This document shows, one piece after another, positions 1 to 5,066 of a DNA stretch of 5,183 nt. The notes beneath the pieces are model-generated. The model was not told the origin of the DNA, made no database searches, and saw only the letters and a program-made list of their open reading frames with translations. Within the stretch, counting starts at the first letter, position 1; each line of letters starts with the position of its first letter. A program made the position numbers and the translations under genes. Origin of the DNA: a virus. The stretch lies in IMG/VR virus record IMGVR_UViG_3300030339_000864; one strand, given 5' to 3'.

Positions 1-127
1 TATGTCCCATATTATTCTTTGTTTATTGTTCCGTATGCTATTACGGATATTAGATTAGTTATTAACATCCAGCTTTTTTCTTCTACTTCTTTTACACATT
101 CTTCGAATGATACTTTGCCTTTTATTA
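1..127. repeat. Terminal redundancy copy 1, identical to 5057-5183; marks a circular genome of 5056 nt
   Basis: Base-by-base comparison shows 1-127 is identical to 5057-5183. The capsid ATG (5064-5066) recurs at 8-10. The 3' part of the 90-aa ORF (12-127) recurs at 5068-5183. Confidence 0.95.
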
Positions 128-284
128 CAATGTATTTCCCAATTGCAATGTTCCATTCTGTTTCTAGCTTTACCGCAATAAATGGACTTCCTTTTATTTC
201 TACTCTTTCTATTAACTTATCCGAAGAGTCCATTTGTGTAGACTCTTTTGTACGTTTTTGTTTGGTTGATTGTTCTATTATCAT
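12..284 (-). CDS. Hypothetical small protein, 90 aa, directly upstream of the capsid gene
   Basis: Open frame on the same strand as all the recognisable genes. Its TAA stop (14..12) lies 1 nt before the capsid ATG on the circle (junction TAATATG). There is no SD before the ATG at 284. An in-frame Met at codon 18 is an alternative start. I recognise no family. Confidence 0.55.
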   Translation of the reverse strand: MIIEQSTKQKRTKESTQMDSSDKLIERVEIKGSPFIAVKLETEWNIAIGKYIVIKGKVSFEECVKEVEEKSWMLITNLISVIAYGTINKE

Positions 285-408
285 AATCAGTTTTTTTTTC
301 TTTATTTATTAATACATAATTGTTTAAGTCTTTAAGATACAGTACTTCTCCTGTATCTATATCGACTCTTGTTGTTATTGTTTTCCATTGCATATTAGTT
401 TTGTTCAT
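217..408 (-). CDS. Hypothetical small basic protein, 63 aa (58 aa if it starts at the ATG at 393)
   Basis: Minus-strand ORF that overlaps the end of the 50-aa ORF and the start of the 90-aa ORF. The second in-frame ATG (393..391) sits 1 nt after the 50-aa ORF stop, the same TAATATG junction seen at the capsid gene. It contains the A9 run at 291-299. It may be the N-terminal part of a fusion with the 90-aa ORF. Confidence 0.45.
   Translation of the reverse strand: MNKTNMQWKTITTRVDIDTGEVLYLKDLNNYVLINKEKKTDYDNRTINQTKTYKRVYTNGLFG
291..299 (-). repeat. A9 homopolymer on the coding strand (T9 on plus) at the frame change between the 63-aa and 90-aa ORFs
   Basis: Plus strand reads cag-ttttttttt-c. 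On the coding strand this is GAA AAA AAA ACT in the 63-aa frame. In the 90-aa frame a TAA lies just upstream of the run and the frame is open from the run onward. Confidence 0.9.
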
Positions 409-547
409 CTAATTGATTAACTACTTCTGTTGCTATTGGTGCTGTTTTTTCAGCTATTTGTGCTGTTTTACCTCCGATTATTCCTGCAACTGCAATTGCA
501 ATATATAGCAATATCTTCCAAATACTTTGTTTTGCTTTTGTTGTCAT
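395..547 (-). CDS. Small single-pass membrane protein, 50 aa, absent from the ORF track; candidate lysis or membrane-active protein
   Basis: Manual translation from the ATG at 547..545 gives MTTKAKQSIWKILLYIAIAVAGIIGGKTAQIAEKTAPIATEVVNQLDEQN, with TAA at 397..395. The layout is a basic N-terminus, a hydrophobic stretch of about 18 residues (WKILLYIAIAVAGIIGG) and an acidic tail. It is preceded by AAAGGAGGTG with a 7-nt spacer. It fills the otherwise gene-free gap between rep and the 63-aa ORF. Confidence 0.6.
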   Translation of the reverse strand: MTTKAKQSIWKILLYIAIAVAGIIGGKTAQIAEKTAPIATEVVNQLDEQN

Positions 548-554
548 TTTTTTA

Positions 555-564
555 CACCTCCTTT
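555..564 (-). promoter_or_regulatory. Strong Shine-Dalgarno site (AAAGGAGGTG) for the 50-aa ORF
   Basis: The reverse complement of 548-570 is GTCAAGAAAGGAGGTGTAAAAAAA, followed by ATG. The GGAGG core is at 557-561. No other gene start in the genome has a comparable SD. Confidence 0.7.
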
Positions 565-580
565 CTTGACATTTATTTTT

Positions 581-1603
581 TTAACTATTAAATTCATTGA
601 TACTATTATCGATTGCGAATATGGGATTAATTTCTTTAGGTTTTTCTTTTTCTATATGATATTTATCAATTTTTAACCTTCTTTTTATTTTTAATACACT
701 TCTTTGTTTCTTATATTCACTTTTATCCCAGTTGTTTGTTAAATCTCCGTAACCTAGCTTTTTGTTTCTTATTTGTGCATACTCTAATGTTTTTTCGTAA
801 TCTTCCTCGTTAACTTCTACACCCAGAACGTATCTTGTTTTTTTATTTAACTTTTGCAACCATAATAGTTCTCTTTCTTTTTCACTATATATCTTATTTC
901 TGTAATATATTGGAAGGTTTAGCTTTGTCCCTTTTTTTGTTGTATAGTATTCTTTTGTTTCTTTTTCTGCATATTTGTTTTTTTTACTGTCACTCTTATT
1001 AATATAATTAGCGCCTATACCTGCACTTGTTAATATTTTTGGTTCGTAACCTTTATGCTCTAAGTCGATCTTATTTATGTATTTAACTATGTAATTAATA
1101 GTCTGTTCGTTTACCCATTTTCCAACATATACCCATCCATATTGCCATATTCTTTCTATTTCTTCTTTTTTTTCTGTCCATATTATCCCGTGTAAGTGTA
1201 TTCTTTCAGTGCCATTATGTCCTAACTCTGTTACTAACCAATGTTTTACAGACTTTTTGTATTTTTTTCTCCACCTTTCTAGGAATCTTCTCACGGCTAT
1301 CGTTGCTACTATATTTTCTTCTATGTTAATTCCTTCACATTCTTTTTCTGCTATTGCAGTAAGTTTTTCTAAGGCCTCATTGTTAAATGTTAGCGTCACA
1401 AATTCACATTTTTCTCTTTTTTTTATTTCTTCGTTTAATCTTACTTGCCAGTTTCTTGTTTTTTGTTTCATACATTCTATACACTTTCCACAGCCTATTG
1501 GTACATATAATGTCCTTTCATCAAAAACGGCGGGTATTATTCCGCCGTTCTTTTTGTTAGCTGTGTATTTCCTATTTTTAATTAACCTTGGATATAGACA
1601 CAT
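581..1603 (-). CDS. Microviridae replication initiation protein (VP4 / gpA-like HUH rolling-circle endonuclease), 340 aa
   Basis: It has the MCLYP N-terminus and the CGKCIEC cysteine cluster typical of microvirus Rep proteins. Motif I is FVTLTF (aa 68-73). The HUH motif is IHLHGII (aa 135-141, nt 1181-1201, codons checked by hand). The catalytic tyrosine motif is YIVKYINK (aa 171-178, nt 1070-1093). Confidence 0.93.
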   Translation of the reverse strand: MCLYPRLIKNRKYTANKKNGGIIPAVFDERTLYVPIGCGKCIECMKQKTRNWQVRLNEEIKKREKCEFVTLTFNNEALEKLTAIAEKECEGINIEENIVATIAVRRFLERWRKKYKKSVKHWLVTELGHNGTERIHLHGIIWTEKKEEIERIWQYGWVYVGKWVNEQTINYIVKYINKIDLEHKGYEPKILTSAGIGANYINKSDSKKNKYAEKETKEYYTTKKGTKLNLPIYYRNKIYSEKERELLWLQKLNKKTRYVLGVEVNEEDYEKTLEYAQIRNKKLGYGDLTNNWDKSEYKKQRSVLKIKRRLKIDKYHIEKEKPKEINPIFAIDNSINEFNS

Positions 1604-1737: not shown

Positions 1738-2670
1738 TTATTTTCCTGCTACTTTTGATGCTATTCCTATTTTTGCTGCACCTCCTATTATTTCTGTTGC
1801 AAGCTTTACCCATGTTTTCCAGTTTGTAAATATTCCTGTTTCAAACTCTGCGCTCAACTTAGCTGCTGCTGCCTTTACGCCTTCAGCGTTAGCTTTGTTT
1901 GTTTCGTTTACTAACTCTTGAAAATAACCTCTTGCCTTTTCACTAGTTAGCAGTGCACTTGCATCTGCATTTCCTGCTTCTGCTTTTGTTTTTAATAATC
2001 CTGTTATTATTTGCTGAGGTATTGCTGCATTAGGATTAATCACTAGCTCTATCTCATTATAAGCAGCATTAGCTGGTAGTATTGTTTTACCTGTTAATTC
2101 CCATTCTTTTTGGAAGTTTTCTAACAAACTTTTGTATCCATCTTGAATTAACTTGTTTACCGTGTTTTCTCTTAATGCGTTTTCTGTCTTTGTTTTTGCT
2201 TCGATGTTTTCTTTTTCTGCACCAAGCTTTTCTGTATTAGCTTGAGTTTGTTTTATTTCACTTGGCATTTTCGTTAATTGAACTCCTAGTCCTACATTTT
2301 CATTATCTGCTCGTTTTCTTTCGCTCTCATTACTTGCGCTTCCGCTTTGTATTGCCATTGGTTGGTTTGCTGTGCTTCCACCACCACCACCACCGCCGTA
2401 CATTAGTGCAGGGTTCAACCCTGCATCTTTTAACCTTTTCATTTGGTTTTTTGGAGCATTATATTCATTGGCTCTGTCTTGTGCCTCGTAGTTCATGTCT
2501 CTTTGTTGTTTCATTAGTTTTCCTTGCTGATCTACTTGGTCTTTAGCTCTGCTTTGGCTTACGCCTAATAGCTTATCTACTCCATAACCTAGTGCGCTAC
2601 CTGCTGCACTTCCTACTGCTCCCGCTGCTGCTCCTCCTACTGAGGAGGCAAAGTCTTCTAGTATTCCCAT
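1738..2670 (-). CDS. DNA pilot / minor capsid protein (VP2 / gpH-like), 310 aa
   Basis: The N-terminus is Gly/Ala-rich (GGAAAGAVGSAAGSALG). It contains NPALMYGGGGGGGS, a long charged Q/E/K-rich central region that looks coiled-coil-like, and a small-residue hydrophobic C-terminus (IIGGAAKIGIASKVAG). Its size and position between the capsid module and rep match microvirus pilot proteins. These proteins are poorly conserved, so the call rests on composition and synteny. Confidence 0.78.
   Translation of the reverse strand: MGILEDFASSVGGAAAGAVGSAAGSALGYGVDKLLGVSQSRAKDQVDQQGKLMKQQRDMNYEAQDRANEYNAPKNQMKRLKDAGLNPALMYGGGGGGGSTANQPMAIQSGSASNESERKRADNENVGLGVQLTKMPSEIKQTQANTEKLGAEKENIEAKTKTENALRENTVNKLIQDGYKSLLENFQKEWELTGKTILPANAAYNEIELVINPNAAIPQQIITGLLKTKAEAGNADASALLTSEKARGYFQELVNETNKANAEGVKAAAAKLSAEFETGIFTNWKTWVKLATEIIGGAAKIGIASKVAGK
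2380..2394 (-). repeat. (GGT)5 trinucleotide repeat inside the Gly7 tract of VP2
   Basis: Plus strand reads tcc acc acc acc acc acc gcc gta (2377-2400). The coding strand reads TAC GGC GGT GGT GGT GGT GGT GGA. Confidence 0.9.
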
Positions 2671-2759: not shown

Positions 2760-3065
2760 TTAATTGCTCGGTAATTCTTCTTCTTTTACCGCCTTTTTTA
2801 ACCTACTCTCTAGATAAGCATCGCGTTTTGCTATCTTATCTTTTTGCACCAGACTCATTGCATCTAGTGCTACATCCCACCTATCCGTCCTTGGGTCATA
2901 ACCAGCCATTACACCTTCTTTTCTATCCGTGTATATTATCGGCGCACCATCTGTTATAGGTTCTTTTTGTTCAAATATTCTATCTACTTTTTCTTCTATA
3001 GTCTCGCCTATATAAGCAGTATTTTGCTTTATTTGTGTATTATTAGTAATTCTATTTTTTATCAT
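2760..3065 (-). CDS. Small conserved microvirus protein, 101 aa, possible scaffolding or structural accessory protein
   Basis: It starts 3 nt after the capsid stop (TAAAAAATG). The core PITDGAPIIYTDRKEGVMAGYDPRTDRWDVALDAM resembles, from memory only, a motif in small proteins of non-gokushovirus gut microviruses. It does not resemble the gokushovirus VP3 that I recall. Confidence 0.7.
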   Translation of the reverse strand: MIKNRITNNTQIKQNTAYIGETIEEKVDRIFEQKEPITDGAPIIYTDRKEGVMAGYDPRTDRWDVALDAMSLVQKDKIAKRDAYLESRLKKAVKEEELPSN

Positions 3066-3068
3066 TTT

Positions 3069-5066
3069 TTACAAATTAGGTATTTGTTTTGCACTCATTT
3101 TTCTTCTCGCTGTAATATCACTTGCTATCTGTACCCAAAAGTTCATCGCTGTCAGGTCTGTTTCTGCGAATGCATAATTATATGCACTTGGGTCTATATA
3201 TGTTGTCAAGTCTTGTATAGCACTTCCTTCTCCTTGGTACAAGAATTGATATCGTCTCGCTAAAGTCATAAACATCTCGCTTCTTTCATCTGCAAAGTTC
3301 CCGTAGATCTGGTTCTTCGAAGTCATGTAGTTCAACCATGAAGGTTGTTTACCTGCACTGAACTTTTCCTCCCCTGTTACATTATCACGAACGGTGTCCC
3401 AAAATGCCATATTTTCAGTAATTAACTCTTGCCATCCAAGTCCGTCCATGCCTGGTACGTGGAAGTCTCTTACAGTTTTTAACTCATTAAACCATTCGTT
3501 TCCTTGATAATAATCAATACGTGGTGTTATTGACGCTATTCCCATTATAATACATGGTTCGTTTTGTACATTTATATAAACTGAACCTCCTTTATGTTTT
3601 GAACTCATTGATCCTTTTCCTGCTAAACTTCCTAATGCATCTTTAGCTGTTGCACTTGTTGATACTACTTCGTTGAATATTATTTCTTTAGAAAGTCCAC
3701 CCATATACATTGGTATTTCTCGCATTCCTGAGGCTCTGACATCATAACTTGCTTCTATATAGTCGTAATATGTACCACCCGATACTGCAATTCTGTTAAG
3801 TACGTTATATACTTTTTCCGCAATATTTAACTGGTCAATTGTAAAACCACCGTCTGCTGTTGATATCTTGCTTACTTCGTTGATCCCATTAGTTCCGTCT
3901 ATCCATTCTGTATTAATCCAATTATTGAATATATCAGACTGGTACGTTTTCAAAGCAAGACCTTCTTGTGAAAATATTGAGCACATTGTAAAGTCTGTTG
4001 GGTCATCTGTGTTAAAATGTTTCACTGGTCCCACATATGGCATCTCATCATATGTACTATCAATTATGAATGGTGTTGCTCCACTATGACTTAATATTTT
4101 TTTTCTCATATTGTCGATATTTTCCAAAGGAAACTTTTCGACTTTAATCTGGTCCGCTACATATATAGCTTTGTTTGAACTTTTAAACTGCTTTATTTCC
4201 GTGCTTGCTATTCCTTCCTTATATATAACATAAACTCTATTTATTCCATTTCCTATATTTTCATTTTTTGAGAAAATTGCTATATTGCTAATTGGGTATA
4301 AAGTTTCCGTCATGTCTTTGTACATTAATCCATCGAAACTTACTCCCCTTCCTTCGAAAGTAGCTGTCATTGGGTAAGCCAGTGTTGTGTCTGTGATTGT
4401 GTCTTGCGACCCTGCATCTTGCACATCGCCTGTAACACCATATGTTTTCCATAATATTATAAATGGAGGTGTGTAATCCTCCGTATGAATCATCATACCT
4501 ATCTCTTCTTGTTTATTAGCGTAGTAGTTCTTGTAAATGTCCCAATAACTAATGTATGGAATTGCTAATTTTTCTGCCTCCACATATTCTTCATGTACGC
4601 CCTGTCTTCCTACCCCTCTTATTCCTAAGTAAGCTAATAGACTACTTTGGTTTATCTGCTGAAACTCTAATGGTATTCTATCAACGCCAAAGTTTAATGC
4701 ATTAGCTTTTAACTTTAACAATGGTAGCTTCACATTTTCCATGTGATTCCCTATTTTTGTTTCATTATTATGTAATGCAGCCTGATATAGCCTTATCGGA
4801 CACTGGAATACATCTATCTGTAGCTTGTAGCTACCAAATAGTGGACCAAGTGTCGGGTGTGTTTTCACATCCGCACCGATATTTATATCGAATGTATCTC
4901 CTGGTAAGCCTATTTCTACAAAATAAGGTACTAGTGTTCCTGTTGACATTGTAGTTCTCATAATACGACTTAGGTCGTGTGTACTTCTTTCAAACCCGTG
5001 TAGCCTTACATTTTCTTTGTTGCCACTTCCTATGCGTTCACCGCCAATGTTTACATTATGTCCCAT
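3069..5066 (-). CDS. Major capsid protein (VP1 / gpF-like), 665 aa
   Basis: The N-terminal signature THDLSRIMRTTMSTGTLVPYFVEIGLPGDTF, followed by GPLFGSYKLQIDVFQCPIRLY, is typical of the Microviridae F/VP1 family. It is the largest ORF. The start codon falls inside the terminal repeat. Confidence 0.95.
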   Translation of the reverse strand: MGHNVNIGGERIGSGNKENVRLHGFERSTHDLSRIMRTTMSTGTLVPYFVEIGLPGDTFDINIGADVKTHPTLGPLFGSYKLQIDVFQCPIRLYQAALHNNETKIGNHMENVKLPLLKLKANALNFGVDRIPLEFQQINQSSLLAYLGIRGVGRQGVHEEYVEAEKLAIPYISYWDIYKNYYANKQEEIGMMIHTEDYTPPFIILWKTYGVTGDVQDAGSQDTITDTTLAYPMTATFEGRGVSFDGLMYKDMTETLYPISNIAIFSKNENIGNGINRVYVIYKEGIASTEIKQFKSSNKAIYVADQIKVEKFPLENIDNMRKKILSHSGATPFIIDSTYDEMPYVGPVKHFNTDDPTDFTMCSIFSQEGLALKTYQSDIFNNWINTEWIDGTNGINEVSKISTADGGFTIDQLNIAEKVYNVLNRIAVSGGTYYDYIEASYDVRASGMREIPMYMGGLSKEIIFNEVVSTSATAKDALGSLAGKGSMSSKHKGGSVYINVQNEPCIIMGIASITPRIDYYQGNEWFNELKTVRDFHVPGMDGLGWQELITENMAFWDTVRDNVTGEEKFSAGKQPSWLNYMTSKNQIYGNFADERSEMFMTLARRYQFLYQGEGSAIQDLTTYIDPSAYNYAFAETDLTAMNFWVQIASDITARRKMSAKQIPNL

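Follow-up and report, generated by a model that had tools for sequence, protein, structure and literature searches.

Guts, oceans, and peat are rich in microviruses that do not belong to the phiX174 group and whose mode of host lysis is unresolved (PMC3394797). The DNA studied here, IMG/VR virus record IMGVR_UViG_3300030339_000864 (the window; 5183 nucleotides (nt) at its full length), contains a small open reading frame (ORF), designated p50, between the gene for the replication protein (Rep) and a small gene designated p63. An initial annotation proposed p50 as a candidate single-gene lysis protein. The ORF is preceded by a long Shine-Dalgarno (SD) sequence, and the host of the virus is most likely a member of Bacteroidota. 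Apart from extended SD sequences such as that of rpsU, Bacteroidia ribosomes are blind to SD sequences, as the proteins bS21, bS18, and bS6 sequester the tail of the 16S rRNA (PMC9976891, PMC13000453, PMC13000457). The SD sequence of p50 is odd because these ribosomes normally ignore such sequences. The locus raises two questions: what p50 does, and by which ribosomes it is read. The answer that we prefer, tentatively, is that p50 is a holin-like lysis or lysis-timing effector, that it is translated from an SD sequence of the rpsU type, and that its translation is coupled to that of p63.

The p50 reading frame and its extended Shine-Dalgarno sequence

The p50 gene lies on the minus strand at 547..395, from an ATG at 547..545 to a TAA at 397..395, and encodes 50 amino acids (aa), MTTKAKQSIWKILLYIAIAVAGIIGGKTAQIAEKTAPIATEVVNQLDEQN. 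The protein has the architecture described in the initial annotation, that is, a basic N-terminus (net charge +3 in residues 1-11), one hydrophobic helix, and an acidic tail. The hydrophobic helix, residues 9-26 (IWKILLYIAIAVAGIIGG; 470..523, minus strand), was recognized both by Kyte-Doolittle analysis (19-residue mean of 1.9) and by AlphaFold2, which predicted from the single sequence one helix spanning residues 3-49 (mean predicted local distance difference test score (pLDDT) of 77). The C-terminal tail, residues 27-50 (398..469, minus strand), is helical and amphipathic, with a hydrophobic moment of 1.61 and a net charge of -2. Small-xxx-small motifs, which favor the packing of membrane helices, are present as A17xxxA21xxxG25 and G22xxxG26. 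Public gene callers have annotated p50 on 20 contigs. Among the out-of-frame or intergenic ATGs of the coding strand, only 1 of 81 opens an ORF of at least 50 codons, and 0 of 81 an ORF with a hydrophobic stretch. Because long or hydrophobic ORFs are so rare in non-coding frames, the combination of ORF, helix, and SD sequence is far beyond chance. We conclude that p50 is a genuine small protein with a single, predicted membrane pass; its N-terminus is probably inside the cell.

The SD motif first noticed, AAAGGAGGTG, is part of the longer AGAAAGGAGGTGT at 566..554 on the minus strand; the end coordinate of 564 given earlier cuts off its first two bases. This sequence is a perfect 13-nt Watson-Crick complement of nt 1532-1544 of the Bacteroidia 16S rRNA tail (ACACCUCCUUUCU), with a predicted duplex energy of about -20 kcal/mol. 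The oligonucleotide AGAAAGGAGGU has been used as the SD probe for Flavobacterium johnsoniae 30S subunits, in which C1543 and U1544 are the last nucleotides of the 16S rRNA (Jha 2021, PMC7797042). The last T of the p50 SD sequence pairs with A1532, a nucleotide characteristic of Bacteroidia (PMC13000457). A spacer of AAAAAA (548..553, minus strand) separates the SD sequence from the ATG, so that the SD sequence lies at -19 to -7. The rpsU gene is the only one in F. johnsoniae with an obvious SD sequence; this SD is extended, with 9-13 bp and an energy below -13 kcal/mol (PMC9976891, PMC13000453, PMC13000457), and its pairing span is about -20 to -8. If an extended SD is defined by 9-13 consecutive pairs with 16S nt 1532-1544 and by an energy below -13 kcal/mol (PMC9976891), the sequence upstream of p50, with 13 of 13 Watson-Crick pairs, is an extended SD of the rpsU type. 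Shuffling of the genome gives an expectation of 0.03 such 13-mers per genome, with up to one mismatch.

No other gene in the window has an SD sequence. The leaders of the six remaining genes (those for the capsid, p101, pilot, and Rep proteins, p63, and p90) are A-rich, in agreement with the earlier remark that the only strong SD of the genome precedes p50; GGAGG is also found within window genes, never ahead of a start codon. The start region of p50 is unstructured as RNA (z = +1.33 against shuffled sequences), and no inverted repeat was found in 540-600. Occlusion of the start by RNA structure was thus rejected, the region being less structured than the shuffles. The rest of the A-rich gap between the Rep stop codon and the SD sequence (567..580, minus strand) contains no hairpin and no Bacteroidota-type promoter. 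The promoter consensus TTTG-N-TAnnTTTG has no match in the window, and a search of Rfam gave no match.

Relatives of the window and their Rep-to-capsid slot

We compared the window with 80 relatives from IMG/VR (Rep 52-63% identical), six metagenome contigs, and four genome loci; scans of IMG/VR and of JGI metagenomes gave no relative above 63% Rep identity. Prokaryotic genomes, one for each species, were also scanned; Dysgonomonas sp. 521 and D. macrotermitis were found to carry chromosomally integrated relatives (51-62% Rep identity). In Dysgonomonas sp. 521, the prophage (Rep 62% identical) lies on a 73-kb scaffold with bacterial genes on both flanks, and the D. macrotermitis relative lies on a 265-kb contig. 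Two further matches were on short contigs binned into metagenome-assembled genomes, and we gave them little weight. Because of the Dysgonomonas-integrated relatives, the A-rich leaders without SD sequences, and the T opposite the Bacteroidia-specific A1532, the host of the window virus is most likely a member of Bacteroidota.

The relatives share the gene order capsid, p101, pilot, Rep, followed by a variable module of 0.4-1.6 kb before the capsid gene. The module usually consists of a p63-like gene (with the motif YVDxETGE) and a p90-like gene, and extra genes are frequent. In many relatives, the p63-like gene is immediately preceded by a small hydrophobic ORF, which in most cases runs into its start. 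In 92 sequences (477 kb), the coding strand has 31 sites exactly complementary to at least 10 nt of the 13-nt tail, and the other strand has none. Directly behind twelve of these sites lies an ATG-started hydrophobic ORF of 27-50 aa; at three further sites (L008, L032, and L038), a TTG-started ORF of the same family stands behind the SD sequence, and in L007 and L101 the SD sequence sits one short ORF upstream of the hydrophobic ORF. Perfect 13-mers occur three times (in the window, in the Dysgonomonas prophage L098, and in L099), each time ahead of a small hydrophobic ORF. In all, an extended SD of 10-13 nt together with a small hydrophobic ORF is present in the Rep-to-capsid slot of at least 15 of the 92 sequences.

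The small hydrophobic ORFs of the slot belong to at least six unrelated sequence families. A tblastn search with p50 gave no match in the relatives, and BLASTP gave none between p50 and the L010 protein. In L001, the relative nearest to the window, the SD sequence and spacer are conserved (AGAA[A/G]GGAGGTGTA[A/T]AAA), and the ORF that follows is unrelated to p50. Thus, the SD sequence, the hydrophobic helix, and the position are kept, and the sequence is not. An equivalent small transmembrane ORF at the same position in relatives, for which the initial annotation had proposed to look, does exist as regards position and architecture, though not as regards sequence homology. In the largest family, the ratio of nonsynonymous to synonymous polymorphism (pN/pS) is 0.04-0.20 between close pairs; therefore, its small ORFs are real proteins under purifying selection. 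None of the papers that we searched reports SD sequences or small hydrophobic ORFs from microviruses of Bacteroidota.

These observations make it very improbable that p50 is a chance ORF behind a non-functional relic of an SD sequence. The lack of a homologue of p50 and the invariance of its copies across contigs would agree with such an origin. However, neither the 13-mer nor a hydrophobic ORF of this length is to be expected by chance, as the frequencies given above show, the layout of SD sequence and hydrophobic ORF recurs in at least 15 relatives, and a G-rich motif would decay fast on a coding strand that is 43% A.

Two prophages deserve separate description. The integrated prophage of Dysgonomonas sp. 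521, a cultivable strain (L098:2600-8700; NZ_QVMO01000010.1), has the perfect 13-nt SD sequence, a 35-aa hydrophobic ORF (MWWKILRTAVEIIVTVFPIIEKLREKKSENDKPEE), p63-like and p90-like genes, and an Amidase_2 endolysin gene just before the capsid gene. In the D. macrotermitis prophage (L101:3490-3790), AGAAAGGAGGT is followed by an ORF of only three codons, ATG ACT ACG TAA ('MTT*'), which corresponds to the first three residues of p50, and an 86-aa ORF with a strongly hydrophobic segment begins 21 nt past the MTT stop codon. The same start region may have decayed or been rearranged here.

The slot also contains genes for small zinc peptidases of 103-118 aa. Peptidase_M15_3 was detected above threshold in L099 and L101, and the L001-type peptidase matches the hedgehog/LAS fold at its zinc site (E = 2e-4). 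Each M15/LAS peptidase gene in the slot is directly followed by a small hydrophobic ORF (L001, L006, L010, L018, L021, L028, L032, L064, L075, and L099); in L008, the copy is truncated, and the amidase of L098 was mentioned above. In double-stranded DNA (dsDNA) phages, a hydrolase gene together with a small hydrophobic ORF makes up a holin-endolysin cassette. By inspection, the L001 peptidase has no N-terminal signal sequence; because it lacks a signal, such a peptidase would need a membrane-permeabilising partner. Peptidases of microviruses are presumed endolysins, and an unknown neighboring ORF has been noted, without description of hydrophobic ORFs or SD sequences (PMC3394797, PMC9239249); the unknown ORF adjoins 5 of 11 peptidase genes (Roux 2012, PMC3394797).

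Because the slot ORF in relatives follows an M15/LAS peptidase gene or accompanies an amidase gene, we regard p50 as holin-like rather than E-type. In this respect the first proposal needs revision: a lysis-related role is still the best guess, and an amurin of the phiX174 E type is not, since the analogues in relatives pair with hydrolases. In an amurin-type mechanism, p50 alone would block cell-wall synthesis at a membrane step, such as that of MraY or MurJ, and cells would lyse at septation without a hydrolase. The small size and N-terminal membrane helix of p50 would suit such a protein; the window genome has no peptidoglycan hydrolase (window ORFs searched with Pfam and PHROGs) and no lysis candidate other than p50; and the unresolved mode of lysis outside the phiX174 group (PMC3394797) leaves room for it. 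Nevertheless, we consider it unlikely. The protein resembles neither E nor any other known single-gene lysis protein, and it is free-standing, whereas E-type genes are embedded. The phiX174 E protein inhibits MraY and depends on Pro21 in its membrane helix, and p50 has no proline in helix 9-26, its sole proline being P36 in the tail. The adjacency of hydrolases to the positional analogues is, moreover, the pattern of holins. No homologue of phiX174 E is present, as judged from Pfam, PHROGs, and NCBIfam and from 1.84 billion cluster representatives.

Two other slot proteins were observed. In L012, L019, L025, L059, and L063, DUF5675 proteins (125-167 aa; Pfam-confirmed in L012 and L019) occupy the peptidase position upstream of the hydrophobic ORF. 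Because this is the usual slot position of the peptidase, DUF5675 may be a cell-wall-active enzyme. In L100, a distant relative, a 71-aa protein (2294-2509) encoded before the capsid gene has a signal-peptide-like helix and a lipobox-like LAAC motif, and is perhaps a spanin-like lipoprotein.

The remaining features of the window agree with the earlier assignment to the microviruses. The window is a circular genome of 5056 nt plus a terminal repeat of 127 nt, with 34.5% G+C, and all genes are on the minus strand. They encode the major capsid protein (5066..3069; Phage_F, E = 1.5e-14), p101 (3065..2760), the pilot protein (2670..1738; PHROG pilot protein family, E = 1.2e-20), Rep (1603..581, stop codon 583..581; REP_ORF2-G2P, E = 1.5e-11), p50, p63 (408..217), and p90 (284..12). 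The genome thus has the features of Microviridae, namely a circle of about 4-6.5 kb, an F-type capsid protein, a rolling-circle Rep, a pilot protein, and a single coding strand. Megablast gave no close phage relative in GenBank, and the best capsid matches, about 50% identical, are from Microviridae of animal guts and the environment. Ten near-identical contigs were retrieved (from ENA, JGI samples 3300030943 and 3300030047, and Logan assemblies), out of the 20 on record with p50; they have five variable positions in total, none of which is in p50. In one otherwise identical contig, L087 (ERZ27249210), Rep has two nonsense changes, G21* and E88* (equivalent to window positions 1543 and 1342), and this is either a defective variant or the result of assembly errors. 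The two larger intergenic gaps contain inverted repeats: in the pilot-Rep gap (1632-1680), with 22-nt arms (82% complementary) and a 5-nt loop, and in the p101-pilot gap (2717-2746), with 11-nt arms (91% complementary) and an 8-nt loop. These repeats could be terminators, an origin, or sites of recombination or integration.

Proposed coupling to p63 and proposed role of p50

As the initial annotation had stated, p50 is not embedded in another gene; it lies between Rep and p63, and only its last 14 nt overlap the p63 start. The first ATG of p63 (408..406) is 11 nt upstream of the p50 stop codon, and a second in-frame ATG (393..391) is 1 nt past it. Public gene callers did not annotate p63 on any of the 10 contigs; nevertheless, it is a real gene: the protein is 63-67% identical to its L001 homologue and belongs to a clade-wide family of small proteins with the motif [WY]xTxxE[YW]VDxETGE...EC, present in about 50 relatives, for which neither Pfam nor PHROGs gave a match. 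In relatives, the small ORF ends between -16 and +22 nt from the p63-like start; in most cases the two overlap or are at most 3 nt apart. Because the p50 stop codon overlaps or abuts the p63 starts, and because the same layout is seen in relatives, termination-reinitiation from p50 to p63 is plausible.

The same evidence bears on the alternative that p50 is in essence a leader ORF, in which the extended SD and the translation of a short ORF would gate p63 by termination-reinitiation and the peptide would be secondary. Besides the positions of the p50 stop codon and of most small ORFs in the slot relative to the p63-like starts, this alternative is favored by the presence of an anti-Shine-Dalgarno (antiSD) complement of at least 9 nt, within 230 nt upstream, in 23 of about 50 relatives with YVDxETGE, as compared with about 3% of background windows. 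Furthermore, in about 18 relatives without a hydrophobic ORF, an SD-like motif of 9-11 nt is located 36-45 nt upstream of YVDxETGE, and behind it is just a mini-ORF of 12-21 aa that ends at the Met of 'MYVD'. However, the hydrophobic-helix character is kept across at least six unrelated families, and, as one of them is under purifying selection, the peptides themselves are evidently of importance. Where only a mini-ORF is found, the SD-like motif falls within a conserved in-frame 'ERR' (GAA AGG AGG/AGA) of the N-terminal region of the p63-like protein, and it may in part be a by-product of this coding. For these reasons, a role as a mere leader seems improbable; gating of p63 is, in any case, compatible with a holin-like p50 and does not exclude it.

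The mini-ORFs were found in two sets of lineages (L030, L031, L033, L036, L043, L047, and L055, for example at L031:2327; and L024, L034, L042, L046, L049, L050, L056, L057, L065, L066, and L069, for example at L065:3798). They are out of frame, begin 4-7 nt past the antiSD complement, and have the consensus M[RK]x[RL]YGxPKVCM; in the 12-aa mini-ORFs, the stop codon is 5 nt after the Met of 'MYVDxETGE'. The mini-ORF could be a coupling device for a short isoform of p63 or a by-product of coding.

In our reading of p50 as a holin-like effector, the gene sits in the variable, accessory region that separates Rep from the capsid gene, and the microvirus that carries it would infect Bacteroidota. 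By analogy with rpsU of Bacteroidia, initiation at p50 would require the long SD-antiSD helix, which would form only on 30S subunits whose 16S tail is free of bS21 and bS18. The synthesis of p50 would therefore be gated separately from that of the phage genes without SD sequences, ribosomes ending p50 would re-initiate on the overlapping p63, and p50 would act at the cytoplasmic membrane. The model for such gating is rpsU, essentially the sole gene with an extended SD in work on Bacteroidia translation; in F. johnsoniae, ribosomes without bS21 translate it better, and for steric reasons its 13-bp helix and bS21 cannot be accommodated together (PMC9976891, PMC13000457).

Another possible role is superinfection exclusion or another modification of the membrane, in which low-level expression, possibly in the prophage state, would block related phages. 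Members of the clade are temperate and integrated in Dysgonomonas, the prophage L098 has kept both the 13-nt SD sequence and an intact 35-aa hydrophobic ORF, and the slot is variable and accessory, all of which would suit this role. The tight and repeated pairing with hydrolases, on the other hand, fits lysis better, and we consider exclusion still less probable than either an amurin or a leader ORF.

Several observations weigh against a holin-like p50 read from an rpsU-type SD. With regard to the protein, no homologue was detected among the 1.84 billion cluster representatives in an exhaustive HMMER search, and the other copies of p50 are all clonal, about 100% identical; the uninterrupted apolar core is just 15-18 residues; and the tail is acidic, whereas typical holin C-termini are basic and highly charged. 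Against the profile of the largest family of slot ORFs (INWLxLxxExxKVxxGFxxGTQ), p50 scored 5.8 bits, a score that about 1% of shuffles reach and that is only a hint of homology. With regard to the slot, many members of the clade have no small hydrophobic ORF at all, so that the ORF is accessory, and some of the hydrophobic ORFs have no SD sequence. As the window has no hydrolase, the logic of a holin-endolysin pair does not apply to it directly. With regard to translation, the bS21 mechanism has been shown solely in F. johnsoniae, and in Bacteroidales, to which all confirmed hosts of the clade belong, rpsU has no extended SD, and SD sequences are found on rpsR and some rpl genes. Finally, among the first 120 matches in IMG/VR to the 13-mer followed by ATG, most were from dsDNA phages, many of them of SD-using hosts, with varied downstream genes. 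A specific association of the 13-mer with small membrane genes across IMG/VR was thus rejected, as all kinds of genes follow it in these matches, and the SD sequence of p50 is remarkable only within the Bacteroidota context.

Searches with p50 in Pfam, PHROGs, NCBIfam, and PDB gave no family match, and a word-indexed search of 5.8 billion proteins recovered only p50 itself. Two long proteins matched in the HMMER search, and we regard these as spurious matches to repetitive or low-complexity sequence.

In some dsDNA phage contigs from IMG/VR (L106, L112, L113, L114, L173, L191, L197, and L210), the 13-mer precedes the gene of a conserved basic protein of 35-45 aa (...VFCKYIxKNGKxIYPKNGxxF...). 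These contigs are poor in SD sequences (on 0-2 of 1-16 long ORFs) and may be from Bacteroidota phages. The genes possibly make up a second class in phages to have an extended SD of the rpsU type.

A more doubtful extension of our reading is that the virus has co-opted the 'specialised ribosome' channel of Bacteroidota. Read only by 30S subunits that lack bS21 and bS18 or shed them upon binding, the small membrane gene would provide a lysis clock set by the state of the ribosome; alternatively, the mRNA could be a sponge that strips bS21 from host ribosomes. If true, p50 would be the first viral gene known in this channel, and also the first that does not encode a ribosomal protein, as rpsU, rpsR, and some rpl genes do. 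A class of phage genes with an SD sequence equal to or better than that of rpsU would extend the channel to viruses and offer a natural second test substrate. The extended-SD layout recurs across many microviruses, including the integrated Dysgonomonas prophages. Together with its positional analogues, the locus provides holin-like candidates from Bacteroidota microviruses that can be tested; several of them adjoin small endolysin genes, and one is in a cultivable Dysgonomonas strain.

Comparison with known systems

The closest parallel to the start region of p50 is the extended SD of rpsU in F. johnsoniae and other Bacteroidota (PMC7797042, PMC9976891, PMC13000457). Both have 9-13 nt of complementarity to 16S nt 1532-1544, an energy far below -13 kcal/mol, a similar distance to the start codon, and a genome in which other leaders are A-rich and without SD sequences. 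They differ in that p50 is a gene for a phage membrane protein and not for a ribosomal protein, and in that no autoregulatory logic is evident for p50. In addition, the pairing of F. johnsoniae rpsU includes one G-U and one C-U pair, whereas all 13 pairs of the p50 SD sequence are Watson-Crick pairs.

The phiX174 E protein is likewise a small microvirus protein with an N-terminal membrane helix, encoded in a genome without an endolysin. It differs from p50 in sequence, in the proline of its helix, and in the phylum and envelope of its host. Moreover, E is overprinted inside D in another reading frame, and p50 is not overprinted.

Accessory genes for M15_3 peptidases in Alpavirinae and Gokushovirinae (PMC3394797, PMC9239249) resemble the locus in that they mark a lysis-associated accessory slot in Bacteroidota microviruses; the window differs from them in having the small ORF alone, without a peptidase.

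With the one-helix holins of dsDNA phages, p50 shares a small size, one helix with small-xxx-small motifs, a charged tail, and extreme sequence diversity at a conserved genomic position. Holins open lesions in the membrane that set the endolysin free or activate it at a programmed time. Of the traits of holins, at least one transmembrane helix is predicted in p50. The C-terminal domain of holins is highly charged and usually basic; the tail of p50 is charged and amphipathic but has a net charge of -2, and the basic end of the protein is the N-terminus. No catalogued holin family in Pfam, PHROGs, or NCBIfam is homologous to p50, its tail is acidic and not basic, and it has no dual-start motif. 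Adjacency to an endolysin is absent from the window, which has no hydrolase; among its relatives, the positional analogues in at least 10 directly adjoin a hydrolase gene, as holins do, and in the L001 example the hydrolase is without a signal sequence.

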